Source of the DNA: Myxococcota bacterium
Lineage (GTDB): Bacteria; Myxococcota_A; UBA9160; JAFDDA01
Length of the DNA: 64,000 bases
Assembly: GCA_965228475.1 (NCBI GenBank)
Contig: OZ245817.1
Span: 3,040,001 to 3,104,000, forward strand
Direction of reading: 5' to 3'
Below, piece by piece: positions 47,401 through 63,049 of the stretch; within the stretch, counting starts at the first letter, position 1, and each line of letters begins with the position of its first letter. The notes under the pieces were generated by a model that did no database searches, was not told the origin of the DNA, and saw only the letters and a program-made list of their open reading frames with translations. The position numbers and the translations under genes were made by a program.

Positions 47401-49038
47401 TCAGCGGCGCGCCTGCTTCCGGTGGCTCAGGTAATCGACCATCAGGTAGGAGCCGAGCTGGTCCGGGCTCGAGTAGAAGACCCGTCCCCGGTTGATCTGG
47501 GTCATGCGCGCGACGAAGTTCACGAGCTCGGGCGCCGAGTCGAGCATGAAGGTGTTGATGGTGATGCCCTGCGCCGTCACCTTGCGAACTTCCTTCAGGG
47601 TCTCGTCGGCGGCGCGCGGCGAGACGCCGCTCACGCCCATCGGCCACTCGACGCGCAGCTCCGGCCCGACGAAGTAGGCCGTCGGCTGACCGTCGGTGAT
47701 CACCAGGATCTGCGGCGCGGAGCTCGGGTGCCGGGCGATCAGCCGCTGCGCGACGCGCAGGCCGTCCTGGAGGTTCGTGAAGGGGTCGCCCATGTTCCAG
47801 ACGACCTCGGGCAGGCGCGGGATCGGGATCTCCTCGGCGCGCGTGTAGAAGCCGACCACGAAGAAGTGATCGCGCGGGAAGCGGGTGCGGATGAGGTGAT
47901 CCATGGCGAGCGCCACGCGCTTGGCCGCGCCGAAGCGCCCTTCCCACGACATCGACCAGCTCATGTCGAGGAGCAGGACCGTGGTCGCCTGCGTACTGGT
48001 ATCGCGTTCGCGCACCTGGAAGTCGTCGAGGCCGAGCGGGACGGGCAGCGGCTGCGCCTGCCCGGGGTGGGAGAGCGCGTGGCGCTTCACGCCGCCGAGG
48101 ACGGTCTTCACGACGTCGAGGTCGAGCGGGTCGCCGAACTCGAAGGGCCGCGTCTCGTCCGGGCGCGGCAGGGCGACGCCCCGGGTATCGACGTCGTGGG
48201 CGCCCGGCCGCCCCTTGCGCAGCGCGCCATAGACCTCCGCGAGCGCCCCGGCGCCGAGCCGGCGGATGGCGCGCGGCGTGAGCTCGTTCTCCCCTTCCCG
48301 CAGGTAGCCGGCCCGTTCGAGAGAGGGGGACAGGTCGCGCAGCAGGATGAGGGACTCCGCCGCGTCGTCGCCGAGCAGGTCCCGGAGGGTCTCGGCATCG
48401 ATGCCTTCGAAGTTTCCCTGTGCGAGGTCGCGCGCGAGCTGCTCCATGCCCTCGACCCGCTCGCGGATCTCCTGGGCCGTCTCGTAGTCCGCGGCTTCGG
48501 GGCCCTGGAAGCGCTGGCCCTGCTGCTGCTGGAACTGTTCGAGCGCCTTCAGCCGATCGAGCTCCTCGAGGAGCTCCCGGAAGGCGTCGCCGGCCTCTTC
48601 GTCCTCGAAGTCCCAGTCGCGGAACCGCTCGATCGTCTCCGAGACCGGCGGAGCGGCCTCGGCCTCGTGACCGTGGCGCCGGGTCATGAAGTCGTTGTGG
48701 CGCGCGGACTCGTGGCCGCTCGCGCCGCGCACGGCGGTCTGCTCGCGATCGAGGATCTCGTCGAGCTGCTGCTGCAGCTCGTCCGTCGCCTCCCGCAGGT
48801 GGTACTGCTCGGCCAGCGACTCCGCCTCGCGCCGAAGCTCACGCAGGAGGTCCTCGACGCCCATCACGCGCATCTCGCGCCCGGCGAGCTCGAAGCCGTA
48901 CTGGCGCATGAAGTCGAGTGCTTCGCCGAGGGACATGCCCTCCATCAGGAGGTCCGAGACGGCGTCGAGCACCGTGTCGGCATCGAGCGTGAAGCTCTCC
49001 TGGGTGCCATCCCAGCGCTGGTAGCGGTAGACGCGCAT
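47401..49038 (-). CDS. VWA-domain protein (partner of the adjacent AAA+ ATPase)
   Basis: YRYQRWDGTQ N-terminus, MIDAS DMSWSM, TNLQDGL, ITDGQPTA. Confidence 0.88.
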   Translation of the reverse strand: MRVYRYQRWDGTQESFTLDADTVLDAVSDLLMEGMSLGEALDFMRQYGFELAGREMRVMGVEDLLRELRREAESLAEQYHLREATDELQQQLDEILDREQTAVRGASGHESARHNDFMTRRHGHEAEAAPPVSETIERFRDWDFEDEEAGDAFRELLEELDRLKALEQFQQQQGQRFQGPEAADYETAQEIRERVEGMEQLARDLAQGNFEGIDAETLRDLLGDDAAESLILLRDLSPSLERAGYLREGENELTPRAIRRLGAGALAEVYGALRKGRPGAHDVDTRGVALPRPDETRPFEFGDPLDLDVVKTVLGGVKRHALSHPGQAQPLPVPLGLDDFQVRERDTSTQATTVLLLDMSWSMSWEGRFGAAKRVALAMDHLIRTRFPRDHFFVVGFYTRAEEIPIPRLPEVVWNMGDPFTNLQDGLRVAQRLIARHPSSAPQILVITDGQPTAYFVGPELRVEWPMGVSGVSPRAADETLKEVRKVTAQGITINTFMLDSAPELVNFVARMTQINRGRVFYSSPDQLGSYLMVDYLSHRKQARR

Positions 49039-49046
49039 GCCCTGGG

Positions 49047-50456
49047 CTAGCCCTGCCCGTAGCGGACCGTGCCTTCGCGCTCGGTCTTGTTGAGGCGGTT
49101 CGCCAGGTGGAGGCCCTCCAGGATGAACTCGATGGCCGAGGCCAGCCGCGGCGGCGAATCGCCTTCGGCGAGCGAGCGCGCACCCTCGCGCAGGCCCGGG
49201 ATCTCGTCGAGCCCCTCGAGGTACTCCCCCGAAGGCATGGCCTCGGACACCTCGACCCGCCAGCCCTGTTCGAAGGCCTCGACGACCGGCGCCAGGCCCT
49301 CCCCCGCCGCGCGCTCCTCGAAGACGACGTGGATGGCGCGCTTCAGGAGTTCGCCGAGCACCTCGGCTTCGGAGCGCTCGCTGCCGGCGTACTCGAGCTC
49401 GATCTTGCCGGTGGTCGAAGCCTCGAGGGCCGGAAGGTCCGAGATGCGCGGGACCGCCTCGCTCTCCCCGAGCCGCAGGGCCCGACGCGCGGCGTTCGCG
49501 AGCAGGGTCTCGTAGTTCGCGAGGGTCATGCGGACGGAGACGCCCGAGCTCTGGTTCACGTCGGGGCTCCGCCGCGCCTGGTGGGTCAGCTCGACGACGA
49601 TCTCCTCGAGGAAGGGCGGCACGTGGACCTCGACGCCGGGAATCTCCGGCCGGACGGCCTCCTGCCGCACGATGTCGAGCTCGAGCGCGCGCGTCTTCGG
49701 GTAGTGCGTGCGGATCTGGGCCGCGTAGCGGTCCTTGAGCGGCGTGATGATGCGGCCCCGGCTCGTGTAGTCCTCGGGGTTCGCGCTCGCGACGACCAGC
49801 ACGTCGAGAGGCAGGCGGACCTGGTACCCCTTCACCTGGACGTCGCGCTCCTCCATCACGTTGAACATCCCGACCTGGACCTTCTCCGTCAGGTCCGGGA
49901 GCTCGTTGATGCAGAAGATTCCCCGGTGGGTCCTCGGCAGCAGGCCGAAGTGGATCGTGAGCTCGTCGTCGAGGGTCCGGCCCTGGGCGACCTTGATCGG
50001 GTCGACGTCGCCGATCAGGTCCGCGATCGAGACGTCCGGCGTGGCGAGCTTCTCGACGTAGCGCGCGTCACGGTGGACCCAGGCGATGTCGGTCTCCGGC
50101 CCCGCTTCGGCGATGCGGTCGATCGCGTAGCGCGAGACCGGAGCGAAGGGGTCGTCGTGGATCTCGCTGCCGGCAACCTCCGGCACCCACTCGTCGAGCA
50201 GGTCCACGAGCGCGCGGATCATGCGGGACTTCGCCTGGCCGCGTTCGCCCAGGAAGATCACGTCGTGCCCGGCCAGGAGCGCGTTCTCGACGGCGGGGAT
50301 CACGGTGTCGTCGTAGCCGAGCACGCCGGGAAAGAGCGGCTCGCCGGAAGCGAGACGCGCAAGCAGGTTGGCGCGCAGCTCCTCGCGCAGGCTGCGGGTC
50401 CGGTAGCCCGCTTTCTCGAGCTCTCCCAGGGTCTGGTACGGCGGCGGCGACGGCAT
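49047..50456 (-). CDS. Magnesium-chelatase-I-like AAA+ ATPase
   Basis: GERGQAKS, EKLATPD..IADLIGDVDPIK, INELPDL, SANPEDYTSRGRIITPLKDR. Confidence 0.88.
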   Translation of the reverse strand: MPSPPPYQTLGELEKAGYRTRSLREELRANLLARLASGEPLFPGVLGYDDTVIPAVENALLAGHDVIFLGERGQAKSRMIRALVDLLDEWVPEVAGSEIHDDPFAPVSRYAIDRIAEAGPETDIAWVHRDARYVEKLATPDVSIADLIGDVDPIKVAQGRTLDDELTIHFGLLPRTHRGIFCINELPDLTEKVQVGMFNVMEERDVQVKGYQVRLPLDVLVVASANPEDYTSRGRIITPLKDRYAAQIRTHYPKTRALELDIVRQEAVRPEIPGVEVHVPPFLEEIVVELTHQARRSPDVNQSSGVSVRMTLANYETLLANAARRALRLGESEAVPRISDLPALEASTTGKIELEYAGSERSEAEVLGELLKRAIHVVFEERAAGEGLAPVVEAFEQGWRVEVSEAMPSGEYLEGLDEIPGLREGARSLAEGDSPPRLASAIEFILEGLHLANRLNKTEREGTVRYGQG

Positions 50457-50511
50457 GGGCCCTCCGGGTGCCCGTGCAGTCTAGGTCAGATCCGGCGCCC
50501 CGCTGCTTCGC

Positions 50512-51693
50512 CTAGAGCAGGTCCGAGGCGCCGAGGCCGTGGCGCTGCTTCAGGGTCTTCACGACGTATCGGATGACCGCCTGGACCGAGGCCTCGAAGT
50601 CGTCGTTGTCGATGATGGGAATGTCGTCGGACTCCTCGGCCAGCTCGAGCAGGTGTTCCTGGATCTTGAGGATGGCATCGAGGTTGTCGACGTAGTCGTG
50701 CGGTCCGTGCTTCGGGCCGCGCCGCCGCTTCTTGAAGCGCTTCCCGTAGGACTTCGCGTTCAGGTTCACGACCATGAGCAGCAGGATGTCGGCGCGGTCC
50801 GCATAGTTGGCGCGGCCGACGAGCCCGGGCACCAGGGAGACGCCGTCGAGAACGAGGCTCGTGCTCTCCTGGATGGCCCGGTCGATCAAGCCCCGGACGC
50901 CCACGGCGACCGCCTGGGCCTGATCCCGGAACGCCTCGACCACCGGCTCCTCGTAGGCCTCGGCGCCGGGCACGGACCGCCAGGCGTCGTAGCTCGACGC
51001 GTGCAGCGCCGGGGCCAGCTCCGCGGAGAGCATGATGCGCATGACCTGACGGATGGCGTCGGTCGACATCACGCGCGGGATGCCGAGACGGTGGGCGACC
51101 TCGACGGCCAGGGCCGTCTTGCCCGCGCCGGTCGGCCCGCCGAGCAGGAGGATCACCGGCCGCTCGGGGTCCTGGAACTTCCGCCAGATGAGATACCGCT
51201 CCCCGACCTCTTCCCCGTGCGCCTGGGACAGGGCATCGAAGACCGTCTTGCGAAGCGTCGCGCGATCGATCTCGATCTGCCCCCGCTGCCGCAGGCCGTT
51301 CTCGATCTGCAGGGCGACCGCCGAGGCCTCGGCCGGATCGATCGCCGCGGCGAGCAGCGACTGGGCCAGCACGCCCTTCGAGAACGGGACCTCCGGGTCG
51401 AGATCGGTGATGCGGATCGGGTCGACGAGGGCCGGAGGCGGCGGGGGGAGCCCCTCGGTCAGGGAGCCCTCGACGAGCTCCGCGAGCTCGGCGCGTGAAA
51501 CCGACTCCCGCCCCTTGATCTGGTCCCGCACGGCCTGGGCCGCCGCGAAGGCCTCCTCGTAGGGGACACCCCGTCGTGTCAGGGCGTGGATCATGATCCC
51601 GCGCATGAAGGGGCGCTCGCCGTCGGCGTCCTTGACCACCGGACGGGAGGTGGAACCGCTCTTGCCGGCTCGGCTTTCCTTTTCGCGGGCCAT
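50512..51693 (-). CDS. 2-phosphoglycerate kinase-like protein with two N-terminal ATP-cone-like domains
   Basis: RPFMRGI and PFSKGVLAQSL cones, P-loop GGPTGAGKT, STDAIRQVMR, LHASSY. Confidence 0.8.
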   Translation of the reverse strand: MAREKESRAGKSGSTSRPVVKDADGERPFMRGIMIHALTRRGVPYEEAFAAAQAVRDQIKGRESVSRAELAELVEGSLTEGLPPPPPALVDPIRITDLDPEVPFSKGVLAQSLLAAAIDPAEASAVALQIENGLRQRGQIEIDRATLRKTVFDALSQAHGEEVGERYLIWRKFQDPERPVILLLGGPTGAGKTALAVEVAHRLGIPRVMSTDAIRQVMRIMLSAELAPALHASSYDAWRSVPGAEAYEEPVVEAFRDQAQAVAVGVRGLIDRAIQESTSLVLDGVSLVPGLVGRANYADRADILLLMVVNLNAKSYGKRFKKRRRGPKHGPHDYVDNLDAILKIQEHLLELAEESDDIPIIDNDDFEASVQAVIRYVVKTLKQRHGLGASDLL

Positions 51694-51838
51694 TTCACCA
51701 CGCTAACCGAGTGACCGGCGCATCGCGAGTTCGGCGCCCGGATCGCAGCGAGTACGGACCGGAGAGGCGCGCTAGCGGTTCGTGCGCGCGTCGCGCCAGG
51801 GGCGAATCCGAACGACACAGGAATTGACCCTTTTTGGG

Positions 51839-51888
51839 TTGACTGATTTGCGAACCAGTCTCTACCGTTCTGCAACACCGTGGTTACA
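51839..51888 (+). promoter_or_regulatory. Putative promoter/operator of the merR-parA operon
   Basis: TTGACT-N18-TACCGT. Dyad GACTGATT-TGCG-AACCAGTC (51841-60) covers the -35 and spacer; second imperfect dyad TGCAAC-N6-GTTACA (51871-88). Confidence 0.5.
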
Positions 51889-51928
51889 CCGGGGGGTGAT
51901 CGTGGCCGCGGACCATCGAAGTGGAGCG

Positions 51929-52405
51929 GTGGCGACACCGGACCACGTTGGACCCGAACATCAGCCGTCGCCCGCCGCGCAGCGGGCCCGGGAGCACTTT
52001 CGCAGCAGCGAGGCCGCCTCCCTGCTCGGACTTTCCCGCCGTCAGCTCCTGTATTGGGCGCAGACGGGTCTCGTCCGCCCCTCGCACACGACGCCGGGCG
52101 GGCACCTGCGATACGGCTTCCGGGACCTCGTCGCCCTGAAGGCGGCCAAACGGCTGATCGACGCCGGCATCTCCGTGCAGCGGATCCGTTCGAGCCTGCG
52201 CGCGCTCGAGCTCGCGCTTCCGCACGTCCGATCGCCCCTCGCCGAGCTCGTCCTGGTCGCCACGGGCGACGTCGTGCTCGCCATCCATCGCGGCGAGGCC
52301 TTCGAGGCGCTCTCGGGCCAGGAATGGGTCCTCGACGTCGCAGAGTTCCAGCGCGAATTCGACCACTGGCGGGCGAGCCACGCGGCCGAGCGCTCGTGCA
52401 ACTGA
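51929..52405 (+). CDS. MerR-family transcriptional regulator
   Basis: FRSSEAASLLGLSRRQLLYWAQTGLVRPS...RYGFRDLVALK..KRLIDAGISVQRIR. Start uncertain. Confidence 0.85.
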   Translation: MATPDHVGPEHQPSPAAQRAREHFRSSEAASLLGLSRRQLLYWAQTGLVRPSHTTPGGHLRYGFRDLVALKAAKRLIDAGISVQRIRSSLRALELALPHVRSPLAELVLVATGDVVLAIHRGEAFEALSGQEWVLDVAEFQREFDHWRASHAAERSCN

Positions 52406-52440
52406 CTTCGGCACCAGAAGCGGGACCGGAGGAGACGGCC

Positions 52441-53529
52441 ATGCGAACCATCGCGATCATGAACCAGAAAGGCGGCTGCGGGAAGACGACCACCACCGTG
52501 AACCTGGCGGGCTGCCTCGCCGCGGACGGCGAACGCGTGCTCGTGATCGACATGGACCCGCAGGCCCACGCCACCCTGGCCCTCGGCGTGGACCCGGATG
52601 CCGTCGACGAGAACCTCTTCGACGTGCTGGTGGACGCCGAGGGCGGCGAGCCGCTCGAGCGCGTGCTGCTCGAGGTCGCGCCCCGGATCGACCTCGCCCC
52701 TTCCGGGATCGTGCTCTCGGCCCTCGAGCAGAAGCTCGTCGCCGACAACGCCGAATCGCGGACGGAGCGCCTCGCGAACGCGCTGTTCGGCCTCGAGGAT
52801 CGCTACGACTACGTCCTCGTCGACTGCCCGCCGAACGTCGGGCTGCTGACGTTCAACGCCCTGCGCGCCGCCGGCGAAGTGATCATCCCGCTCGAGACGA
52901 GCTTCTTCGCCATCCAGGGCGTGCAGAAGCTCCTCGAGACGATCGGCCTGCTCTCGGACCGGATCGCCCACGACCTCTCGGTGCGGATCCTCCCGACCCT
53001 CTTCGACGGCCGGACGCGCTACGCGCGCGAGACGCTCGCCGAGATCCGGGAGCTCTTCAAGGAGCTGTGCTTCGACACCGTGATCCGCCAGAACGTGAAG
53101 CTGCGCGAGGCGGCTCGGCGCGGCACGCCGATCATCCAGTTCGCGCGCACCGCCAACGGCGCGCTCGACTACGCCTCCCTCGCCATGGAGCTCGCGGCCG
53201 AGGCGCCGGCCCTCGACGCTCCGGCGGATGCCCAGAACGCCGCCGCCGAGGCCGGAGAGCCCCGCGAGGTCGTGATCCAGTTCCGCGACGACGCGGCCAG
53301 CGACGTCCGCATCGCCGGCGACTTCAACGGCTGGGTCCCCGACAAGGGCGTCGTCTCCCGCACCGAGGAGCAGGGCCGGCAGCGCGTCTGGACGAAGACG
53401 CTGGCCCTGCCGCCGGGCACCTACCAGTACCGCTACGTGGTCGACGGCGACTGGTGCGAGGACCCCGAGAACCCGGAGAAGTCCCCGGGCCGGGTCGGTG
53501 AGCGCAACTCCGTGCTCGTGGTCCGCTGA
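52441..53529 (+). CDS. ParA/Soj-family ATPase fused to a C-terminal glycogen-binding (CBM48/AMPK-beta-like) domain
   Basis: KGGCGKTT, IDMDPQ, VDCPP. C-terminal V.IAGDFNGW...W...LALPPGTYQYRYVVDGDW..DPENP. Confidence 0.9.
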   Translation: MRTIAIMNQKGGCGKTTTTVNLAGCLAADGERVLVIDMDPQAHATLALGVDPDAVDENLFDVLVDAEGGEPLERVLLEVAPRIDLAPSGIVLSALEQKLVADNAESRTERLANALFGLEDRYDYVLVDCPPNVGLLTFNALRAAGEVIIPLETSFFAIQGVQKLLETIGLLSDRIAHDLSVRILPTLFDGRTRYARETLAEIRELFKELCFDTVIRQNVKLREAARRGTPIIQFARTANGALDYASLAMELAAEAPALDAPADAQNAAAEAGEPREVVIQFRDDAASDVRIAGDFNGWVPDKGVVSRTEEQGRQRVWTKTLALPPGTYQYRYVVDGDWCEDPENPEKSPGRVGERNSVLVVR

Positions 53530-53537
53530 AGAGAACC

Positions 53538-54356
53538 GTGCCCCGCGACCTCGGCGACGTCCTCCACTACTTCATGCCGGAGATCGAATCGGCGGACGAG
53601 CCGGCGGCCGCGCCGGCGCGGCGCGCGCCGGGCGCCGGGCGTGGCGCGGGAACGGACCCGGCCGGCGCGCTCGGGCTCGTCGGCGTCCCGCTCGGGCATC
53701 GGGACGTGCTGCGCGCCACCTTCGTCTGGAACCTCGCGGTCGAAACCACCGCCCAGGGTGCCCCGACCACCGTCGTGGTTCCGGCGCGCATGTCGCCGCC
53801 GGTCTGGCCGGAGCCCGGGCGAACGCCCATGGGCGCGGAGATCCTGCCGGTCTTCGCCGAGGGGCTCGCGGAGTTGACCCAGGCCGCCCTCGACGTGGCC
53901 GCCACGCGCGCCGCCGAGGTCGCGCCGGAAGCCCTCGTGCTCGTGTGCATCCCGCCCTCCTGGCTCGCCAAGGCAGCCGACGGTGCGGCGCTGCTCCGCC
54001 AGGTCCTGCTCTTCTCCTCGCCCGAATCCGCGGACATCATCGAGACCTACGCCCTGGCCAAGCACCTGCTCACGGCGGCGCCCGAGGCGCGGGTCGGGGT
54101 CACGGTCTTCGGCGTGCAATCCGTCGCCGCCGCGGCGCGGACCTTCGACCAGCTCACCCAGACCGCCCAGCGCCACCTCGGCTGCGACCTCACGAGCTAC
54201 GGCCTCCTGATCGACGAACTCCAGATCTACCGGGCGATCGTCGATCGGCGGCCGATCGGGATCTCCCAGCCCCAGTCCCGCGCGGCCCGAAGCTTGCGGG
54301 ACGTGGCACGCCTTCTCCTCGACGACGTCACCGCCCTGGTCGATGACGCCCCCTGA
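53538..54356 (+). CDS. Degenerate MinD/FlhG-like protein lacking Walker A
   Basis: C-terminal half IIETYALAKHL...AQRHLG...RAIVDRRP...P.SRAARSL resembles FlhG/FleN. The P-loop position reads GHRDVLRAT. Confidence 0.6.
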   Translation: MPRDLGDVLHYFMPEIESADEPAAAPARRAPGAGRGAGTDPAGALGLVGVPLGHRDVLRATFVWNLAVETTAQGAPTTVVVPARMSPPVWPEPGRTPMGAEILPVFAEGLAELTQAALDVAATRAAEVAPEALVLVCIPPSWLAKAADGAALLRQVLLFSSPESADIIETYALAKHLLTAAPEARVGVTVFGVQSVAAAARTFDQLTQTAQRHLGCDLTSYGLLIDELQIYRAIVDRRPIGISQPQSRAARSLRDVARLLLDDVTALVDDAP

Positions 54357-54398
54357 ATGCTCGACGGCGCCGATGCAATGCTCGATGATCCACGGTGA

Positions 54399-55040
54399 AT
54401 GAGCGACTTCACCTGGACCGAGCCGCCGCCCCGCAAGGAGCTCCTGGCCGGCCTGCGGGCCGAGATCAGCCGGCTGCCGGGCTCCCTGCGCGTGGTCGCC
54501 GAGAACCTGCTCGGCGCCGACGCCCGGATCGACTGGCTCGCGGCGGACGCCGACGGCCGCGTCCACGTCGTCCTCGTCTCGACCGACGCCGATGACCTCG
54601 CCCTCGTCACACTCGGTCTCGCCCAGCGCGCCTGGGTCGAGGCGCGGCTGCCGGACTGGGCCCAGCTCGCCCCGCAGCAGGGACTGCGCAGCGAGGATGG
54701 CGTCCGCCTCGTCCTGCTGGCGCCGGACTTCTCGGCGACGGCGGAGGCCGCGGTCCGGGCGGTGGGCGAAGAAGACGTCGACCTCGTGCGCTACCGCTGC
54801 GTGCGATCCGGGCCACCGGGTGGCCCCACGGGGGTCGTGATCGAGCCGAGCGGGCGCCGGGAAGAGCGGGCACGGCCGGGCCCCGTGGCCGCCCCAGCCG
54901 CCGATTCCCGTTTCCGGACGGGCCTCTCCGATGCAGACCTGCTCGTGTCGACCGCTGAGCGCCGGGCCCTCGAAATCGAGGCCGAAGTCCCCGAGGGGAC
55001 CGAGCGGACGAAAAAAGTCACCGCCGGTGACAAACTTTGA
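54399..55040 (+). CDS. Hypothetical protein, NucS/PD-(D/E)XK-like fold with degenerate active site
   Basis: VVAENL...RIDWLAADADGRVHVVLV...VRLVLLAPDF; the E-x-K residues are absent. Confidence 0.55.
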   Translation: MSDFTWTEPPPRKELLAGLRAEISRLPGSLRVVAENLLGADARIDWLAADADGRVHVVLVSTDADDLALVTLGLAQRAWVEARLPDWAQLAPQQGLRSEDGVRLVLLAPDFSATAEAAVRAVGEEDVDLVRYRCVRSGPPGGPTGVVIEPSGRREERARPGPVAAPAADSRFRTGLSDADLLVSTAERRALEIEAEVPEGTERTKKVTAGDKL

Positions 55041-55154
55041 CACCACCCGCCCCCTGCCAGCCACTTCAAGGTCGAGGGGGTGAGGGTCCGGTCCGGGAAG
55101 GGCCGGAGCCGGCTCGGGAGGCTTCGCCGAACGAGCTTATCTGGGAAGGTGCCG

Positions 55155-55751
55155 ATGGCTGCTCCGCAACCTGTTGTCTCTGTTTCTCCGCAACCGACCG
55201 TCCTGCAGGAAGACCCGGACCGCGAACTCGTCCGCCGCGTGATCGCTGGCGACGAGGCGGCGTTCCAGATCTTGTACGACCGCTATTTCCCGCGCGTCTA
55301 CGACTTCGTCCAGCGCCGCTTACGCAACCGCGCGGACGCCGAAGAGACGGTCCAGGAGGTCTTCATCAACCTGCTGGGCTCGATCGAATCGTTCCGCGGC
55401 GAAGCGCCCTTCGGCGCCTGGGTGTTCGGCGTGACCCGCCGCACCGTGGCGAGCCGCTTCAAGCGCAAGCAGCACACGATGGTGCCGCTCGCGGACGACG
55501 ACACGTCCGAGCCGGTCCACCACGGCGCACCCCAGGCCGTGGGCCCGCACGAGGCGTACGAATGCCAGGAACGCCTGGACCGCCTCGCCGAGACCGCCAT
55601 GAACGATCTCACCGCCGACCAGCGCGAGCTGTTCCGGCTCCATCACCTGCAGCACCACTCGATCCAGAACATCGCGCGGTTGCTGAACAAGAGTGAGGAT
55701 GCGGTGAAGTCGAATCTCTACCGGGCGCGCAAGGTTCTACTCGCTCGCTAG
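55155..55751 (+). CDS. ECF-type RNA polymerase sigma factor
   Basis: GDEAAFQILYDRY, DAEETVQEVF, FRGEAPFGAWV, IARLLNKSEDAVKSNLYRAR. Confidence 0.93.
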   Translation: MAAPQPVVSVSPQPTVLQEDPDRELVRRVIAGDEAAFQILYDRYFPRVYDFVQRRLRNRADAEETVQEVFINLLGSIESFRGEAPFGAWVFGVTRRTVASRFKRKQHTMVPLADDDTSEPVHHGAPQAVGPHEAYECQERLDRLAETAMNDLTADQRELFRLHHLQHHSIQNIARLLNKSEDAVKSNLYRARKVLLAR

Positions 55752-55933
55752 CCCGCTCTTGCGGGGGGCCGCGCGGGAGGCCGAGGTTGCCTCCGGCTCA
55801 TGGCTCGCCCTGGCGGGCTGCCGGGATGTCTGGACATCCGAGTGCGGGCTGCGCTTTTACTTCGCCGGAGGCAACCTCGGCCTCCCGCGCTCCTCGGCGG
55901 CTCGCGGGCCAGTGGGCTCGCTATTGTGGTTGG

Positions 55934-56671
55934 ATGGGCACCGAGTACGACTGTTCCGCGTCCTTTAGGCGATGGGCTCGCGACGAGGGCGAGCCGCTCG
56001 CGCTGCGGCGTCGGGAAGCGGGCGACGCGGCAGGGGCCTTCCACTACGAGTTCACTTCGCGGGGCGACCGTGTGGCCGCTCGGCTCGAGGGGGCGGCGGC
56101 GGGACGGCCGCTCGCGGTGGTGCTGACGGCGGACGCGGAAGGCGTTCCGGCCCTCGGAGGCGTCGCGGTCGCGACGCTCGCCCTCCCCCTCCACGGGAAC
56201 CGGCACCATCCGAAGTGGAGCGCGCGCCTCGCCGGGCTGCTGCGGGACGGCGCGGAAGGCGCCCTCGACCGCGGCCTCGTCGAGGAGTTCCTGCGCCAGG
56301 CGGTCTGCGACGTCCAGACGCTGCTGCACGTCTGCGGCCAGGAGGCGGACGTCGACCTCTCGAAGACCCTTCTGCTCGGCCACGGTCCCGGAGCCTTGGC
56401 GGCCGCCGCCGTGCGCGCGGCGACGCCGGGCGTGCTCGCCACGGCACTCGCGCCGGGGGAGCTCGCGTCCGACCTCGACCCGGCCGCCGCGCTGGAAGCG
56501 CCCGGGAGCCCGTGCACGGTCCTCGGCGAGGGGCGCGGCCCGGCCTGGGCCGGCCGGCTCGACCAGGCAGTGCTCCCGCTGGCGCCCGATGGGCCGCTCG
56601 CCGGCCTGCTTCAGGCCGCGCTGTCTGAGGCGGCGGTACCGGCCGGCGACTCCGGTGGGAGCTGCGGGTAG
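55934..56671 (+). CDS. Hypothetical protein, possible degenerate alpha/beta-hydrolase
   Basis: EFTSRGDRV, LPLHG.R, and LLGHGPGA at the nucleophile-elbow position. 3' end overlaps the convergent EI24 gene by 61 nt. Confidence 0.5.
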   Translation: MGTEYDCSASFRRWARDEGEPLALRRREAGDAAGAFHYEFTSRGDRVAARLEGAAAGRPLAVVLTADAEGVPALGGVAVATLALPLHGNRHHPKWSARLAGLLRDGAEGALDRGLVEEFLRQAVCDVQTLLHVCGQEADVDLSKTLLLGHGPGALAAAAVRAATPGVLATALAPGELASDLDPAAALEAPGSPCTVLGEGRGPAWAGRLDQAVLPLAPDGPLAGLLQAALSEAAVPAGDSGGSCG

Positions 56672-57489
56672 CGCAGCGCGAGCAGCGTGCCCGAAACGAC
56701 GAGCGCGGGCATCGCCAGGAAGTTGAGCCCCGGAACGAGCAGCGTCGCGAAGGCGCCGACCCCGAAGCCGAGCATGGCAAGCCGGTGCCCGAGGATCCAA
56801 CGACGCTTCTCCCGGAAACGCACGCGGCGCCGGTCGAGGGTGTAGCTCGCGTAGTCGAGGGGCAGGAAGAGCACCGTGAGCGCCACCATCACGAAGGGCG
56901 CCACGAGCTGGCCGCCCGGAATGAGGAAGCCGAGCGTCGCGACGATGGCCTGGAGCAGCAGGAAGAAGAACAGGCGGCGAAGCTCCTCGCTCATGGCGCG
57001 GCCGCCTTCCCGCAGCAGGGCGCCGAAGCCCGACTCCTGGATCTCCTCCACGCGGCCGGCGATCAGGGCTTCGACCCGTTTGGAGAGCGCGTCGAGGAAC
57101 GGCGAGGAGACGACGTTCGCGACGAGGAACGCGGCCACCAGGGCCAGACCCGAGAGCGCGGCCGTCAGCACGATGCCGAGCACGAAGAAGAGGGCACGCC
57201 CGGGGCCGACCCAGAGCCACTGGTACCAGGCGTTCGCCTCGAGGGCGGGCAGACCCGAGAGCACCCAGCCGTGGATCTCGCCGAGGTAGGCGACGAGGAA
57301 GACGCCCGTCGTCCCGCACAGGAAGAGCGCGATCAGGAACGGGATCAGGGCGAGCTTCCAGAGCGAGGTCTCGCGCCGCAGCAAGCGCAGGCCCTCGACG
57401 TGCACGGACAGGCCGTCGACGGCGTGGGCCAGGTTCCGGCCCGGCGGCGGCGCCTGGGGGCGCGACGGCGGGGAGCCGGGCGAACTCAC
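56611..57489 (-). CDS. EI24/CysZ-family membrane protein
   Basis: Several TMs, ANVVSSPFLDALSKRVE, LDY, LVPGLNFLAMP..V.SGT. GTGA overlap with manB. Confidence 0.82.
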   Translation of the reverse strand: MSSPGSPPSRPQAPPPGRNLAHAVDGLSVHVEGLRLLRRETSLWKLALIPFLIALFLCGTTGVFLVAYLGEIHGWVLSGLPALEANAWYQWLWVGPGRALFFVLGIVLTAALSGLALVAAFLVANVVSSPFLDALSKRVEALIAGRVEEIQESGFGALLREGGRAMSEELRRLFFFLLLQAIVATLGFLIPGGQLVAPFVMVALTVLFLPLDYASYTLDRRRVRFREKRRWILGHRLAMLGFGVGAFATLLVPGLNFLAMPALVVSGTLLALRYPQLPPESPAGTAASDSAA

Positions 57490-58826
57490 GCCGCGGCCTC
57501 GATGCGGGCGAGCAGCGCGTCGCGGTGCCGGACCATCGAGGCCTCGTCTTCGGCCTCGAGGTTCAGGCGGACCACCGGCTCGGTGTTCGAGCAGCGGAGG
57601 TTGAACCACCAGTCCGGGTAGCGGACGAGCAATCCGTCGAGGTGCGAGATCTCGCTCGCGCCGGCGTGCTCGGCGGCCAGGGCTTCGAGCAGCGCGGCCG
57701 GGTCCCCGACGCGCCGGTTGATCTCGCCCGAGGCGGAGTAGCGCAGCAGCGGCGCGACGAGCTCGGAGAGCGGCTTGCCGCTCTCGGCGAGGACGTCGAG
57801 CAGCGCCACGAAGGCGGCGATGCCGTCGTCGGCCACGAGCGTCGGCGAGAAGCGGAAGTAGAAGTGGCCCGAGAGCTCGCCGGCGAAGATGGCGTTCTGC
57901 TCGCGCATGTCGGCCTTGATGAAGGAGTGGCCGACGCGGCACATGCCGGGGCGGCCGCCCGCCTCGGCGATCGCCTCGGCCGTGGCCCGGCTCGAGCGCA
58001 GGTCGTAGAGCACCGCCGCACCGGGATTCTCGCGCAGCCGCACTTCGGCGAGCAGCGCCGTCACGAGATCGGCGCGCACGATGGCCCCGTTCTCGTCGAC
58101 GAACATCGCGCGGTCCGCGTCGCCGTCGAAGGCCACACCGAGGGGGTGACCTCCCCTCCGGACGGCGGCGACGAGATCCGTGAGCGTGCTCTCGTCGAGC
58201 GGGTTCGCCTCGTGGTTCGGGAAGGTCCCGTCCGGCTCGAAGTAGAGGCGCTCGACGCGCAGGGGCAGCCGTTCGAGAAGCGGCTCGAGACCGGCGGCGG
58301 CCATGCCGTTGCCGCAGTCGATGGCGACGGAGATCTCGGGGCAGGCGCCGCCCACCGAGAGCGCTTGCTCGACGTAGCTCTCGCGGACGTCGGCCCGCTC
58401 GAGCGCGCCGCGCGGCTCGATGACGGCCGCCGATTCCCGTTCGGCGGCCAGGCGCTCGATGTCCTTCAGGCCGGAGTCGCCGCCAATCGGCACGGCGTGG
58501 GCCCGGCACACCTTGAACCCGTTGTACTGCCCCGGGTTGTGGGAGGCCGTCACCATCACGCCGCCCCCGAGCCCCAGGTGGTCGACCGCGTGGTAGAGCA
58601 TGGGCGTGGCGGCGAGCCCGAGGTCGACGACGTCGGTGCCCTCGTCGCGGATTCCGCGGCACAGCGCCTCGGTGAGCTCGGGCGAATGGGTCCGGGCATC
58701 GCGGCCGACGGCCAAGCGCGCGGCCCCGATGAAGTGGGCGACGCCCCGGCCCACGCGGTAGGCCATCGCGGCATCGAGCTGATCCGGGACGGTTCCCCGG
58801 ATGTCGTAGGCCTTGAAGATCGACAC
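57486..58826 (-). CDS. manB: Phosphomannomutase/phosphoglucomutase
   Basis: IFKAYDIRG, VTASHNP, FDGDADR, GELSGHFY, SNTEP. Confidence 0.93.
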   Translation of the reverse strand: MSIFKAYDIRGTVPDQLDAAMAYRVGRGVAHFIGAARLAVGRDARTHSPELTEALCRGIRDEGTDVVDLGLAATPMLYHAVDHLGLGGGVMVTASHNPGQYNGFKVCRAHAVPIGGDSGLKDIERLAAERESAAVIEPRGALERADVRESYVEQALSVGGACPEISVAIDCGNGMAAAGLEPLLERLPLRVERLYFEPDGTFPNHEANPLDESTLTDLVAAVRRGGHPLGVAFDGDADRAMFVDENGAIVRADLVTALLAEVRLRENPGAAVLYDLRSSRATAEAIAEAGGRPGMCRVGHSFIKADMREQNAIFAGELSGHFYFRFSPTLVADDGIAAFVALLDVLAESGKPLSELVAPLLRYSASGEINRRVGDPAALLEALAAEHAGASEISHLDGLLVRYPDWWFNLRCSNTEPVVRLNLEAEDEASMVRHRDALLARIEAAA

Positions 58827-59196: not shown

Positions 59197-60696
59197 CTAG
59201 GAACCGACGCGCTCGATGCGGAACCGCGCCGGCGCGCCCGTGCCCGGGTTGCGCTCGAGCACCGCATCGAACCCGCGGCGTTCGCCCGGGGGAAGCGGCG
59301 CCGCGGCGGTCTCGGCCGCAGCCTGCTCCTGGCGACGCGTCAGGGCACCCACCGGAAGCTCTCGAAGATCCGCCTCCGAGAGGGAGGGCCCGGCGATGGC
59401 CGGCCGGGAGATCACCTGGCCCGCTTCGTCGAGCAGGACGACCCGCAGCCGGCCCGCTGCAGCGGCGGCCTCGCCTCCCCCTGGAACGAGCTCCCCGGAG
59501 ACCACGAACAGCGTGCCGGAACGAGCGTTGTCGATGAAGCGTCCGCGGACGTTCTCCGCGCGCATGCCCTCCCAGGAGGCGCTTCCGGCGGGCGCCGGCG
59601 GCGCAGCGGGTTCGACCTGGACGCTCCCGTGGAGGACGGCGAGCAATGCCACCGCCGGCGCGATCCAGCCGACGTTCTGCCAGAGCCCGGAGCGGGCCCG
59701 CGGCGAGACCGAGACCGGGGCCTCCGGAGGCGTGGTCCCGACGTCGGGCCAGTCCGGGTCGGGGCGTTCGCCGTCGCCCGCGTCGTCGTCGTCGTCGTCG
59801 TCGTCCAGGTCGAAGCCATCGAAGGTGGCTTCGCCGTAGGCGTCGAGCCCTTCGCCGTCGATGTCGGCGACGGGCGGCTCGCTCGGCGCGGGAGCCTCCT
59901 GCGGTGCGGCGTCGTCCGCGGGCGCGGCGGGCTCGGCCTCGAGGGCGGCGGGCGAGGTCATTCCGGGCGGATGCGCGGCTTCGGGCTCGTCGAGCTCGAG
60001 GGGATCGCCGTCACCCCCGTCGTCGGTCATCTCGAACATCGCCGATTCGGCGCCCGCGACGGGGGCGATCGGACGCAAGGTCGTATCGTCGGGCAGCTCG
60101 CTCTCGTCCGGCGCGGGCATCGCGACGGCCGGAGCCGGCTCTTCGGCGGCGGGCGGCTCCTCCGGTTCGTCGGGCAGCGCGTCGAGGGCCGCCTGGGCGG
60201 ACTCCGGCTCGGCCGGGTCCCCGGGCTCCGGCTCGGAAGCGGACGCCGCACCCTCGGGCGCTTCGGCTTCCGGCGCGGTGGAGCGCGAAGCCTTCGAGCT
60301 CCGCTTCGAGTTCCGGTTGGCCTCGACCGCCGCATCGAGCGCCAGGTTGGAATCCCCGAACTCCCAGGGCCCCTCGGCGATGGCCTCGTCCGGGGGCGGA
60401 AGCTCGGGGTCTTCGTCGTCGGCTTCGGGCTCGGGCGGCGCGGCCTCGGCGGAAGCGTCCTCGGCCGGGGCCTCGTTCACGAAGCGCAGCTCGTCGGCCG
60501 TTCCGGGTTGGGTGAGTCCGCCGAGGGTCTGGCCGTCGGCCGTCTCGTCCCCATCGCTCGGGGCGCCGACGGAGCCGTCGGGATTCACGTGGAAGCGGTG
60601 CTGGCAGCGCTTGCAGCGAACCCGTGCACCGCGCGGCGGGATGCGTGCCGCGTCGACCTGGAAGCGCCGCTCGCAGCCTTCGCACGTGATGACCAT
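59197..60696 (-). CDS. Zinc-ribbon (MJ0042-type) protein with acidic linker, TM and DUF3426-like C-terminus
   Basis: MVITCEGCERRFQVDAARIP..GARVRCKRCQHRF, Asp/Glu/Pro-rich linker, LFVVSGEL...LPPGERRGF. Confidence 0.8.
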   Translation of the reverse strand: MVITCEGCERRFQVDAARIPPRGARVRCKRCQHRFHVNPDGSVGAPSDGDETADGQTLGGLTQPGTADELRFVNEAPAEDASAEAAPPEPEADDEDPELPPPDEAIAEGPWEFGDSNLALDAAVEANRNSKRSSKASRSTAPEAEAPEGAASASEPEPGDPAEPESAQAALDALPDEPEEPPAAEEPAPAVAMPAPDESELPDDTTLRPIAPVAGAESAMFEMTDDGGDGDPLELDEPEAAHPPGMTSPAALEAEPAAPADDAAPQEAPAPSEPPVADIDGEGLDAYGEATFDGFDLDDDDDDDDAGDGERPDPDWPDVGTTPPEAPVSVSPRARSGLWQNVGWIAPAVALLAVLHGSVQVEPAAPPAPAGSASWEGMRAENVRGRFIDNARSGTLFVVSGELVPGGGEAAAAAGRLRVVLLDEAGQVISRPAIAGPSLSEADLRELPVGALTRRQEQAAAETAAAPLPPGERRGFDAVLERNPGTGAPARFRIERVGS

Positions 60697-60872
60697 TGCG
60701 CCCGCCTCCCCTTCCGGCCCGATCCGTGACGGCACCGTGAAAGCGCGGTGCGGCAGCTCGACGCCGCAAGCGTGCGAGATGCGTGTGCTACCTTGCCTCC
60801 GAACGCGGCGCCGGGTTCTCCCCTCTCTTTTCGGAGTGTGCCGGAGACCGCTTGAGCCACCGCCGGAGCCCC

Positions 60873-61847
60873 GTGGCGAGCCCCCTCCCGAAATCCCTCC
60901 TCGACCGCCGCCTGATCTTCGTGACCGGCAAGGGCGGCACCGGAAAGACCAGCGTCGTCGGCGCCTTGGCCCAGGCGGCTGCGCGCGCGGGAAAGCGCGT
61001 CCTGGTCGCCGAGACCGGCCGCGACGAGGCCGTCTCCCGGCTGCTCGCGCCCGGCGAGCCGGAGGTCGGCTACCGCGGCCGGGAGGTGCAGCCCGGCCTC
61101 TTCGTCCTGCGCGTCGCCCCCTACGAAGCCCTCGCCGAATACATCGGCCTCCAGTTCGGCGTCCGTACGATGACGGACCTCGTCTTCCGCAACACCGCCT
61201 TCCGGCAGCTGATGGACGCGTCCCCCGGATGGCGGGAACTCATCACGCTCGGGAAGATCTGGCACCTGACCCAGGAGGAGGACGCGGAGGGCCGTCCCCG
61301 CCACGAGCTGTTGATCGTGGACGCACCGGCGACGGGCCACGGGATCACCTTCCTCGACGTCCCGCGCGTGGCCGCGGCGGCCGTCCGCGCCGGCCCCCTC
61401 GCGCGGCACGCCGGCTGGGTCGAGGACATGGTGAAGGATCCGGAGCACACGCGGCTCCTGCCCGTCGCGCTGGCCGAAGAACTCCCGGCCCGGGAGACGG
61501 CGGAGCTCGTCGGACGGCTGCAGACGGACGTCGGGGTCACGGTCGACCGCGTCGTGGTGAACGGGATCGCCCGATCGCCCGTTCCGCCCGAGGTGCCGGA
61601 CCTCGCCTCCCGGCTCGACGCCCTCCCCGACGATCTCGAACTCCCGGGCCTCCCGAGCCCGGCCGTGCTCGCGGCCTGCGTGCGGCACGGCGACGCCCGC
61701 GCCGCCCTGAACCGTCACTACGCCGAGGAGATCGAGCGCAGCATCGGTCTTCCCACCGTCGAGCTGCCCTTCCTCGAAGGCGGCATCAGCGGCCCCGACG
61801 ACCTGGCGCTCCTGGCCGAGTCGCTGCTCCCGGAGGGCGCGTCGTGA
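60873..61847 (+). CDS. ArsA/Get3-like ATPase, first of a pair
   Basis: FVTGKGGTGKTS, SPGWRELITLGKIW, IVDAPATGHG, AEELPARET. Confidence 0.88.
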   Translation: MASPLPKSLLDRRLIFVTGKGGTGKTSVVGALAQAAARAGKRVLVAETGRDEAVSRLLAPGEPEVGYRGREVQPGLFVLRVAPYEALAEYIGLQFGVRTMTDLVFRNTAFRQLMDASPGWRELITLGKIWHLTQEEDAEGRPRHELLIVDAPATGHGITFLDVPRVAAAAVRAGPLARHAGWVEDMVKDPEHTRLLPVALAEELPARETAELVGRLQTDVGVTVDRVVVNGIARSPVPPEVPDLASRLDALPDDLELPGLPSPAVLAACVRHGDARAALNRHYAEEIERSIGLPTVELPFLEGGISGPDDLALLAESLLPEGAS

Positions 61848-63049
61848 AGCCGGCCACCCCGGCCGCCCTGCTCGAATCGCGCCGCATCCTCGTCTGCGTC
61901 GGCAGCGGCGGGGTCGGCAAGACGACCGTCTCCGCGGCGATCGCCCTCGAGGCCGCCCGGCGCGGCCGCCGGACGCTGGTCCTCACGATCGACCCGGCGC
62001 GCCGGCTCGCGGACGCCCTCGGCCTGGCGAGTCTGACCGGCGAGCCGCGCGAGATCCCGCGCAACCTGCTCGCGCCGCTCGGCGTCCCCGAGGACGGCGC
62101 GCTCTACGCGATGATGCTCGACGTGAAGGGCACCCTCGACGGTCTCGTCGAGCGCTTCGCCGAAGACGAGGCCGCCCGCCGCCGCATCCTCGACAACCGG
62201 ATCTACCAGCACGTCTCCGACGCCCTCGCGGGCAGCGCCGAATACTCGGCCATGGAGAAGGTCTACGAGCTGTTCGAGCGCCACGACTTCGACCTGATCG
62301 TCGTCGACACGCCGCCCTCCCAGCACGCGCTCGACTTCCTCGAAGCGCCGCGCCGCCTGCTCGAGTTCATCGACAGCCGCATCGTGAAGCTCCTGCTGCA
62401 CCCGGCCTTCTCCGCCGGACGCTTCGGCTTCCGCCTCTTCCAGCGAAGCGCCTTCCGCGTCTTCCAGCTGATCGAGCGGGTCTCGGGCTTCGGCTTTCTC
62501 GAGGAGATCTCCGAGTTCCTGCTCGCCTTCGAAGGCATGGCCGAGGGATTTCGCGAACGGGCCCTGCGGGTCGAGTCCCTGCTCCTCGGCCCCGAGGCGG
62601 GCTTCATCCTCGCCGCTGGCGCCGCCGGAGAATCGGTGCACCACGGCCAGGCGCTGCTCGGACGGCTGGCCGAGGCCCGGGTACCGCTCTCGGGGATCGT
62701 GATGAACCGCGTGCGCACCTGGCCGGGCTCCGGGCCGCCGCCGGAGACCTTGCCGACCGACGGGGACGAGGCGAGCGCCGTCGCGGCCCTGGCCGAGGCC
62801 CTGGCGCGGGGCGCGGATTCCGAGGACTTCCCCGCCGAAACTGCAGCCCGGGCCGCCCTGCAGGCGGCGCGCGGACACGCCCGGGTGGTGGGCCGACAGC
62901 GCGCGGCGTGCGAGGATCTGCGCAAGGAAGCGCGGCAGCGAGGCCTCTTCTGGCGCACCGTTCCCGAGCTGCCGCGGGACGTCCACGACCTCGCCGGGCT
63001 GTCCCGCGTGGCCGAGCACGTCTTCGACGCAGCCGGAGAAAGCGCATGA
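61844..63049 (+). CDS. ArsA/Get3-like ATPase, second of a pair
   Basis: CVGSGGVGKTT, LTIDPARRLADALG, EYSAMEK, VDTPPSQHALDFLEAP, DVHDL. GTGA coupling to the first gene. Confidence 0.9.
   Translation: MKPATPAALLESRRILVCVGSGGVGKTTVSAAIALEAARRGRRTLVLTIDPARRLADALGLASLTGEPREIPRNLLAPLGVPEDGALYAMMLDVKGTLDGLVERFAEDEAARRRILDNRIYQHVSDALAGSAEYSAMEKVYELFERHDFDLIVVDTPPSQHALDFLEAPRRLLEFIDSRIVKLLLHPAFSAGRFGFRLFQRSAFRVFQLIERVSGFGFLEEISEFLLAFEGMAEGFRERALRVESLLLGPEAGFILAAGAAGESVHHGQALLGRLAEARVPLSGIVMNRVRTWPGSGPPPETLPTDGDEASAVAALAEALARGADSEDFPAETAARAALQAARGHARVVGRQRAACEDLRKEARQRGLFWRTVPELPRDVHDLAGLSRVAEHVFDAAGESA

Follow-up and report, generated by a model that had tools for sequence, protein, structure and literature searches.

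A ParA-type ATPase fused to an AMPK-beta-like carbohydrate-binding module, with two dead-enzyme partners: a candidate glycogen-tethering module of Myxococcota

How bacteria organise and inherit their glycogen is, to our knowledge, essentially unknown. The glycogen of E. coli is reported to gather at the old poles and to be capable of excluding the chromosome (PMC4836754). Granules of another carbon-storage polymer, polyhydroxyalkanoate (PHA), are described as being tethered to the nucleoid for inheritance by the proteins PhaM and PhaF (PMC9049629). The subject here is a cluster of five genes, lying between 51.8 and 55.8 kb on the + strand of a 64,000-nucleotide (nt) stretch of a Myxococcota genome (contig OZ245817.1, positions 3,040,001 to 3,104,000; the whole stretch is referred to below as the window), that may provide glycogen with a comparable connection. 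Its central product, ParA-CBM, joins a ParA/Soj-type ATPase to a carbohydrate-binding module (CBM) of the CBM48 type found in the beta subunit of AMP-activated protein kinase (AMPK); the two genes that follow encode P3 and P4, whose folds are those of enzymes and whose catalytic residues are gone. This triad is flanked by genes for a MerR-family regulator and for a sigma factor of the extracytoplasmic function (ECF) type.

The triad itself is no longer unpublished. A bioRxiv preprint dated 22 October 2026 (10.64898/2026.10.19.760177), a work of computational prediction only, presents it as the second variant of a clade designated ConB5: a ParA-AMPK1_CBM protein, then a second, inactive ParA, then an inactive protein of restriction-endonuclease fold. 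The window locus has precisely these three components. The passages of the preprint that deal with the system read it as immune sensing of carbohydrates, and describe the CBM as rapidly diverging and the system as sporadic. MerR, sigma and Myxococcota do not occur in its main text, and those same passages make no mention of peptide motifs in P3 or P4, of an overlap between the two genes, of promoters, or of a neighbour from glycoside hydrolase family 13 (GH13); beside them, the P3 peptide, the P4 motif, the P3-P4 overlap, the promoter/operator of the ECF gene and the GH13 neighbour are new. Our initial annotation of the locus stated that no characterised system is known to have this composition. 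That is still so as regards characterisation, while as a predicted immune system the triad is already in print; no other publication linking ParA to AMPK1_CBM or to glycogen granules was found in the literature.

Among the closest known systems are McdA/McdB, which positions carboxysomes, and the PomXYZ proteins of Myxococcus xanthus. What is shared is an orphan ParA without ParB that acts on the nucleoid (as that of the window locus would) and a fast-evolving partner with a short basic N-terminal peptide, putatively activating in the window locus; the Pom system uses two activators (PMC7993993). Peptides of this kind are described as the activators of ParA/MinD ATPases in ParB, MinE, ParG, PomX, McdB and TlpT (PMC7993993). 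The differences are equally clear: in McdA/McdB and PomXYZ the binding of cargo is the business of the partner and is not fused to ParA, the cargo is proteinaceous, and the partners have neither pseudo-ParA nor pseudo-nuclease folds. PhaM of Cupriavidus and PhaF of Pseudomonas are likewise instructive: through them the granules of a carbon store are connected to the chromosome and passed on to both daughters, and they influence transcription as well (PMC9049629). They differ in being passive bifunctional tethers without an ATPase cycle, are not homologous to any part of the module at hand, and serve another polymer. The CBMs of AMPK beta and of SEX4/LSF belong to the same domain family as that of ParA-CBM and have the same glycan-contact residues, but are mounted on a kinase scaffold or a phosphatase rather than on a P-loop ATPase.

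ParA-CBM is encoded at 52441..53529 (+ strand) and was identified by its Pfam and PDB matches. It consists of a ParA part (residues 1-255), an Ala-rich linker (about 253-276) and the CBM (277-362). A genome scan provides the material for comparison: it kept 80 loci, comprising 54 close fusions (L001-L054), which are 62-77% identical to the window protein over their full length, 11 distant full-length fusions (L055-L059, L062, L064, L070, L071, L074, L078; 38-45% identity) and 15 plain ParA genes. The ParA part matches Pfam AAA_31 (E 2.1e-51, residues 1-180) and, among solved structures, the ParA 8ray (E 1.5e-48), Helicobacter pylori Soj (HpSoj, 6iub; E 8.5e-44) and Thermus Soj (E 3.3e-39). Across 45 orthologues there is little or no variation in the conserved residues of the deviant Walker A motif (KGGCGKT, with its signature lysine K10; G11, G12, K15 and T17 were also scored), in the Walker A' residues D37 and D39, or in the Walker B residue D128; as judged from sequence, the domain retains the full catalytic motifs of a Soj-type ParA. 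Two further motifs, FDGRT and RQNVK, have their counterparts in the FDSRA and PRNVR of 8ray; R191, R193 and R216 are invariant, K220 is conserved in at least 90% of sequences, and all four line up with basic residues of 8ray and HpSoj, at what we take to be the DNA-contact positions of Soj. A ParABS system would have an adjacent ParB (CTPase/HTH) and parS; no ParB domain was found in the five proteins or their neighbours with Pfam and NCBIfam.

The C-terminal part matches Pfam AMPK1_CBM (PF16561, residues 277-360; E 3.6e-11, with a score of 43.5 bits where the cutoff is 26.8), and in the PDB its 86 residues find the CBMs of AMPK beta (E ~4e-7), of the starch phosphatases SEX4 and LSF1, and of pullulanases. 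In the alignment with the AMPK beta2 CBM (4y0g, E 4.3e-7), FNGW, QYRY and DGDW of the window protein pair with FNNW, QYKF and DGQWV. The corresponding consensus, FNxW, Y[RK] and DGxW (K or R being allowed at the second position), is invariant in all 65 aligned fusions and maps to W100, K126 and W133 of AMPK beta1. The residue numbering is fixed by residue 134, which is given as Val in AMPK beta2 (PMC6274970). In the AMPK beta1 CBM, W100G and K126Q are reported to abolish glycogen binding and W133L to weaken it (PMC6274970). The module is accordingly predicted, by its sequence, to be competent for binding glycogen. The initial annotation had read off the intact Walker A, A' and B motifs, the basic residues of FDGRT and RQNVK, the retained tryptophans of the CBM and the lack of an adjacent parB, and each of these readings has withstood the comparison with orthologues, solved structures and domain models; the Ala-rich linker that it also named is visible in the translation itself.

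Might the module nevertheless hold something other than glycogen? The beta-sandwich fold of CBMs is versatile, and one can imagine a CBM48-like module that binds an exopolysaccharide, a cell-wall precursor or a protein, its ParA then positioning some other cargo, such as P3 and P4 in a complex on DNA. The lack of glg genes near the module in Myxococcota would fit, as would the absence of the conserved C-terminal NS motif of the CBM from four of the distant fusions (L055, L057, L058 and L059). The invariance of three glycogen-contact residues in every one of the 65 fusions argues otherwise, and so does the fact that the closest relatives, solved or known by sequence, are all alpha-glucan binders; we regard a different ligand as unlikely.

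The partners are less easily recognised: neither P3 nor P4 has any Pfam or NCBIfam match, and their assignment is due to alignments, AlphaFold2 models and Foldseek. P3 (53538..54356, + strand, 272 aa) was aligned as the window protein plus 44 of 48 delimited P3 open reading frames (ORFs), four (L022, L034, L045, L054) having been dropped for doubtful starts or frameshifts. Its model (pLDDT 86.8, pTM 0.81; residues 1-40 disordered) finds FlhG (4rz3, E 2.5e-12), MinD (1hyq, E 3.1e-10), FleN (5j1j, E 3.7e-10) and also Soj; the Atlas feature search points to MinD/ParA with a score of 0.94. The modelled protein has the alpha/beta fold of the SIMIBI class. At the position of the P-loop it reads GHRDVLRAT where ParA has KGGCGKTT, and at that of Walker B it reads VCIPP in place of VDCPP; the P-loop lysines and the Walker B aspartate are gone in Myxococcota. 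Distant P3-like proteins (those of L055, L057, L058 and L059) still have GxxGxGKST. Because both the P-loop and the Walker B aspartate have been lost, "pseudo-FlhG" is a fair label. FlhG and FleN, regulators of the MinD type, are the best structural matches of P3, which differs from them in being without P-loop or Walker B in Myxococcota and in having no flagellar context.

What P3 does have is a conserved N-terminus. Residues 1-15 read MPRDLxDVLHYFLPE and are followed by a linker of variable length, disordered to about residue 40; across lineages the peptide takes the form [KR]-x-L-x-[DEQS]-[VI]-x-[HR]-[YLF]-[FY]. A regular expression found this peptide in the ORF after ParA-CBM at 57 of 65 loci; L009, L043 and L044 have variants of it, L054 has part of it, and it is absent from the distant loci L056, L070, L074 and L078. 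FlhG bears a functional N-terminal activator peptide.

P4 (54399..55040, + strand, 213 aa) was aligned as the window protein plus 38 of 41 P4 ORFs (those of L001, L016 and L045, being over-long or read-through, were left aside). In its model (pLDDT 87.0, pTM 0.72) the folded core, residues 1-151, resembles NucS (2vld, E 4.9e-5) and EndoMS (5gke, E 6.3e-5) and, more weakly, the R2 RLE, SfsA, Shedu and Card1; the Atlas feature search points to NucS_C with a score of 0.93. P4 has a NucS-like PD-(D/E)xK fold, that of the restriction endonucleases, and one acidic residue, D45, persists in no fewer than 90% of the sequences. The (D/E)xK of the active site has disappeared: strand 3 (residues 55-60) reads V-V-L-V, with no acidic-x-Lys in any of the 39 sequences. 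Beyond the core lies a disordered linker and then a motif, F-R-T-G-L-x-D-x-D-L, with a short helix (residues ~172-195); its conserved heart is F[RK][TS]G[LV], and F[RK][TSC]G[LV] is retained in distant relatives.

In 36 of 40 loci the start codon of P4 overlaps the stop codon of P3, the two genes having 4 or 8 nt in common. In L029 (11114-11602) a single protein of 162 aa has a P4-like domain joined straight to the P3 peptide, and three other loci (L024:1132-1683, L031:11091-11708, L043:11085-11561) have a shortened P3 of 158-205 aa that keeps the peptide, with no P4. Taken together, the fusion, the shortened P3s and the overlap suggest that the peptide is the constant element and that P3 and P4 work together. 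In the closest relative, L001 (11947-13350), the P4 frame runs on without a stop into the ECF gene, making an ORF of 467 aa; P4 and sigma may be naturally fused here, or the assembly may be at fault. A complex prediction with two copies of ParA residues 1-262 and P3 returned a score of 0.01, which carries no weight in either direction.

These components can be assembled, tentatively and as a possibility that we place somewhat short of probable, into a device for the nucleoid-linked tethering or distribution of glycogen. The reasons for favouring this reading are that the equipment of Soj is retained, that the CBM is competent by sequence, and that there is a partner with a basic N-terminal peptide. 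The ATP-bound ParA dimer would bind the nucleoid, and its two CBMs, each on an Ala-rich linker, would grip glycogen granules and so tether them to the chromosome. The P3 peptide would stimulate ATP hydrolysis and release, the P4 motif being possibly a second activator, as in PomX/PomY. Repeated cycles of binding and release would distribute the granules along the nucleoid, so that each daughter cell receives a share. Transcription may in turn respond to the state of the store by way of the ECF sigma and, in loci that have it, MerR.

How is such a module maintained? Wherever the contigs reach, the 54 close loci, each from a different species-level genome, have a neighbourhood in common, over flanks of ~20 kb: SppA, a von Willebrand factor A (VWA) protein, an AAA+ protein, an ATP-cone kinase, MerR, ParA-CBM, P3, P4, ECF and a 245-aa protein, followed further downstream by CysZ, PMM, TatA, a zinc-ribbon protein and two ArsA-like genes. 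Conservation of the gene order had been set beforehand as a test that could refute the initial annotation; the order held across these 54 loci, and the triad recurs in other lineages. Searches with tblastn detected P3 in 50 of the 54 loci, ECF in 45, MerR in 44 and P4 in 44, the misses being mostly at contig ends, and profile hidden Markov models detected P3 in 51 and P4 in 43. MerR was not detected in ~8 close loci that have the upstream sequence, and is dispensable; ECF is absent only from L015. A protein search gave at least 120 matches; those listed all have at least 69% identity, at least 99% coverage and an AMPK1_CBM, and the named proteins among the matches listed come from metagenome-assembled genomes of Myxococcota/Myxococcales. 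Twelve of the close loci (L006, L014, L018, L023, L025, L032, L040, L044, L046-L048 and L050) carry the titles Spirochaetales or Spirochaetaceae, probably taxonomic mislabels, because their locus is the syntenic one of the Myxococcota type, with 64-74% identity.

The rates at which these proteins evolve bear directly on the preprint's proposal of anti-phage or anti-plasmid immunity, in which, as its passages have it, a CBM lectin senses infection-linked carbohydrates or the depletion of polysaccharide, ParA multimerises and limits infection, and the inactive restriction endonuclease senses DNA (10.64898/2026.10.19.760177). The preprint describes exactly this triad. Median identity to the window is 72% for the MoxR-like AAA+ protein, 68% for ParA-CBM, 67% for PMM, 63% for MerR and 57% for ECF; ParA and CBM are thus as conserved as neighbouring core enzymes. 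By domain, the figures are 71% for ParA, 67% for the CBM and 24-30% for the linker: the CBM diverges barely faster than the ParA domain, contrary to the rapid CBM divergence that the preprint's passages describe. P3 and P4 do diverge fast, which those passages take as a sign of conflict; the gene content 3' of ParA-CBM varies (short P3, P3-P4 fusion, loss of P4); and the spread across phyla is patchy. Set against this are a fixed chromosomal position among housekeeping genes in 54 species-level genomes and the lack of any effector domain. No defence or mobile genes adjoin the module, and the flanking genes are housekeeping genes in every lineage examined, other phyla included. None of at least 5000 plasmid records and none of 233 phage records covers the fusion. 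PADLOC yielded no defence-system match, its hits being confined to the level of the P-loop (PDC-M28B, E 1.5e-6, ParA residues 3-39) and of the helix-turn-helix (mad1, E 7.3e-7, on that of MerR). In short, the hallmarks of a conflict system, a sensor that diverges rapidly and a variable or defence-island context, are missing from a locus that, in contrast to the system as the preprint portrays it, is syntenic, has a slowly evolving ParA-CBM, and is embedded among housekeeping genes. Immunity appears improbable as the function of this locus; most likely, the module is a vertically inherited one of the housekeeping ParA type and acts on the cell's own alpha-glucan store.

Profile searches place the triad in at least six loci of other lineages: L055 (P4-like, E 1.5e-13), L057 (P4-like, E 1.5e-10), L058 (P3-like, E 5.7e-7; P4-like, E 5.8e-9), L059 (P3-like, E 1.6e-5; P4-like, E 2.4e-9), L064 (P3-like, E 7.2e-6; P4-like, E 3.3e-4) and L071 (P3-like, E 6.7e-11; P4-like, E 9.3e-6). 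The first four, in each of which Pfam recognises a second ParA-like protein, form an Effluviviacota-type group (L059 is from Candidatus Effluviviaceae, phylum Effluviviacota). It is here that a connection to alpha-glucan comes into sight. Three of the four (L055:1657-4068, L057:2163-4610, L059:2007-4535) encode, 3-5 kb upstream of the module, an 803-842-aa protein of the alpha-amylase family with an N-terminal AMPK1_CBM and a GH13 catalytic domain that is maltodextrin-glucosidase-like (E 3.9e-93). TldD/PmbA genes lie between, and in L055 the CBM-GH13 gene is on the strand of the module, with short gaps through the TldD/PmbA pair. Over 95 residues, the CBM of the window module shares 34% identity with the CBM at the N-terminus of such a GH13 alpha-glucan hydrolase from another phylum.

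An ECF-type sigma also recurs. Two unrelated lineages have one beside the triad: among the close Myxococcota loci it was detected in 45 of 54, and it is present in all four Effluviviacota-type loci, where it lies beside the P4-like gene on the other strand (TIGR02937, E 1e-10 to 1e-13). Together with the strong conservation of the ECF promoter/operator, this invites the suggestion that ParA-CBM is a sensor of the carbon store, reporting glycogen or maltodextrin status and controlling ECF and/or MerR through P3 and P4, with positioning secondary or absent. Models for such a sensor are the AMPK-beta CBM, the MinD-type FleN that controls FleQ, and granule-bound PhaR, which controls its promoters; FleN bound to FleQ is among the best structural matches of P3, and PhaR and PhaF are described precedents of granule-coupled transcription (PMC9049629). 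Pfam and NCBIfam reveal no anti-sigma domain and no sigma-binding feature in either P3 or P4, the sigma factors of the two lineages are not specifically related, and four modules (L064, L071, L062 and L015) have no adjoining sigma. The apparently complete DNA-binding and ATPase equipment of a Soj would, moreover, be superfluous for a simple sensor. A sensor in which positioning has little or no part therefore seems rather unlikely; signalling towards the ECF sigma is compatible with the tethering of glycogen.

Tethering has difficulties of its own. In known ParA systems the activator is on the cargo, not on ParA, so a ParA that itself binds cargo needs a different geometry. CBM48-type modules are capable of contacts with proteins as well as with glucans. 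There are no glg genes among the 53 ORFs scanned in the window, where the sole sugar-phosphate gene near the module is a PMM/PGM gene 1.7 kb downstream (57486-58826). The two partners evolve fast, median identity to the window falling to 43% for P3 and 40% for P4. Four of the 11 distant fusions have neither P3 nor P4, their contexts differ, and the triad is patchy across phyla. The window ECF and the ECF-type sigma of L057 show no significant similarity by BLASTP (E 0.09), and the linkage of MerR and ECF to the module is partly a matter of clade-wide synteny. All of these weigh against tethering.

If glycogen tethering is nonetheless what the module does, the ParA/MinD positioning principle would extend from DNA and protein bodies to polysaccharide, and two dead enzymes would be serving as peptide-bearing partners. 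One can go further, and think of the module as an ATP-driven machine devoted to the partitioning of stored polysaccharide, the first of its kind, in which a pseudo-ParA and a pseudo-nuclease, as peptide scaffolds, reset ParA, and the ECF sigma reads the state, coupling the inheritance of glycogen to transcription; that full version is doubtful. In either event the locus offers a concrete test of housekeeping versus immunity for one and the same gene triad, a test with consequences for the trust that guilt by fast evolution deserves when defence systems are predicted.

The five genes are co-oriented, with gaps of 35, 8, 42 and 114 nt in order from MerR to ECF, and a GC3 of 0.86-0.96 in all five ORFs marks them as coding frames. 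The initial annotation had given the same gaps and called all five domains (MerR, ParA-CBM48, pseudo-FlhG, pseudo-nuclease and ECF sigma); the ORF coordinates agree with the former, and Pfam, AlphaFold2 and Foldseek with the latter. It had also put the cluster forward as a single candidate operon. The cluster stands, but the ECF gene has its own conserved promoter, and the five genes are for that reason most likely two transcription units: one predicted promoter drives MerR, ParA-CBM, P3 and P4, and a separate one drives ECF. Both were recognised only through comparing orthologous upstream regions; a strict consensus scan of 51500-56100 found no sigma-70 site, terminator-like sites in that stretch number 2 against 1.4 expected, and a search of the two intergenic regions for short inverted repeats turned up nothing convincing.

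The first of these, the sigma-70-like promoter 5' of MerR (51839..51868, + strand), consists of TTGACT, an 18-nt spacer and TACCGT; of 41 orthologous upstream regions, 28 contain TTGACT, with hexamers of the TAnnnT type after it. The MerR gene itself (51902..52405, + strand; Pfam MerR_1, E 7.3e-15) probably starts at GTG 51902, as indicated by a conserved G-rich Shine-Dalgarno (SD) sequence (51891-51899) and a start position common to L001 and others. The longest ORF starts at 51782, and the start at 51929 used in the initial annotation is the less likely one. The conserved promoter/operator of the ECF gene (55026..55065, + strand) overlaps the P4 stop codon and has the form GGTGACA-N5-TGACACC, ~16 nt, GGCCACT; TGACACC occurs in 30 of 46 orthologous regions and TTGACAC in 25 of 46, the motif is often preceded by palindromes of the GTGAC-N7-GTCAC type, and in the window it is unique (1 match against 0.05 expected). 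Activation of the kind practised by MerR proteins, with an operator inside a promoter spacer that is over-long, was weighed but not adopted: both spacers are 18 nt, they are variable, and no conserved palindrome lies inside them.

The ECF gene (55155..55751, + strand) starts at ATG 55155, a start backed by the comparison of upstream regions, in which a conserved SD-like CTGGGAAGG precedes it. The product has sigma regions 2 and 4 only, as befits an ECF factor (Sigma70_r2, E 3.4e-15; Sigma70_r4_2, E 4e-15; TIGR02937, E 3.1e-28, 98.5 bits against a cutoff of 42.9). On its 3' side lies the gene for the 245-aa protein (55934-56671), which turned up in 35 of the 54 close loci with ~30-46% identity and is without a Pfam match even at E 0.01. 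In neither this protein nor P4, the two that adjoin the sigma factor, was an anti-sigma domain found.

The wider surroundings are those of a housekeeping stretch of chromosome: the window, with a G+C content of 72%, includes dxs, xseAB, ftsEX, ccm genes, ffh, hisG, plsB and tatA, and Rfam and tRNA scans of its whole length gave no matches. Divergent from the MerR promoter, on the - strand (47401-51693), are three genes, one for a fusion of an ATP-cone protein with a P-loop kinase resembling 2-phosphoglycerate kinase (NF003259, E 1.2e-87, under its cutoff), the others for a MoxR/ChlI-like AAA+ protein and a VWA protein; among the 54 close loci the first was detected in 48, the second in 31 and the third in 29. 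Pairs of MoxR and vWA appear in passages of the preprint as a predicted immunity/apoptosis system (10.64898/2026.10.19.760177). Downstream of the module, at 59197-60696 (- strand), a 499-aa protein combines a zinc ribbon in its N-terminal part (Zn_ribbon_4, E 5.1e-12) with a subsequent long, acidic region of low complexity rich in Ala, Pro, Glu and Asp, and at 60783-63049 two tandem genes encode ArsA/Get3-like ATPases of 354 and 401 aa, detected in 27 of the 54 close loci. Far from the module, at 19199-21560, the genes cofD, cofC and that for F420-0:gamma-glutamyl ligase stand in a row, which points to the biosynthesis of coenzyme F420 in the source organism.

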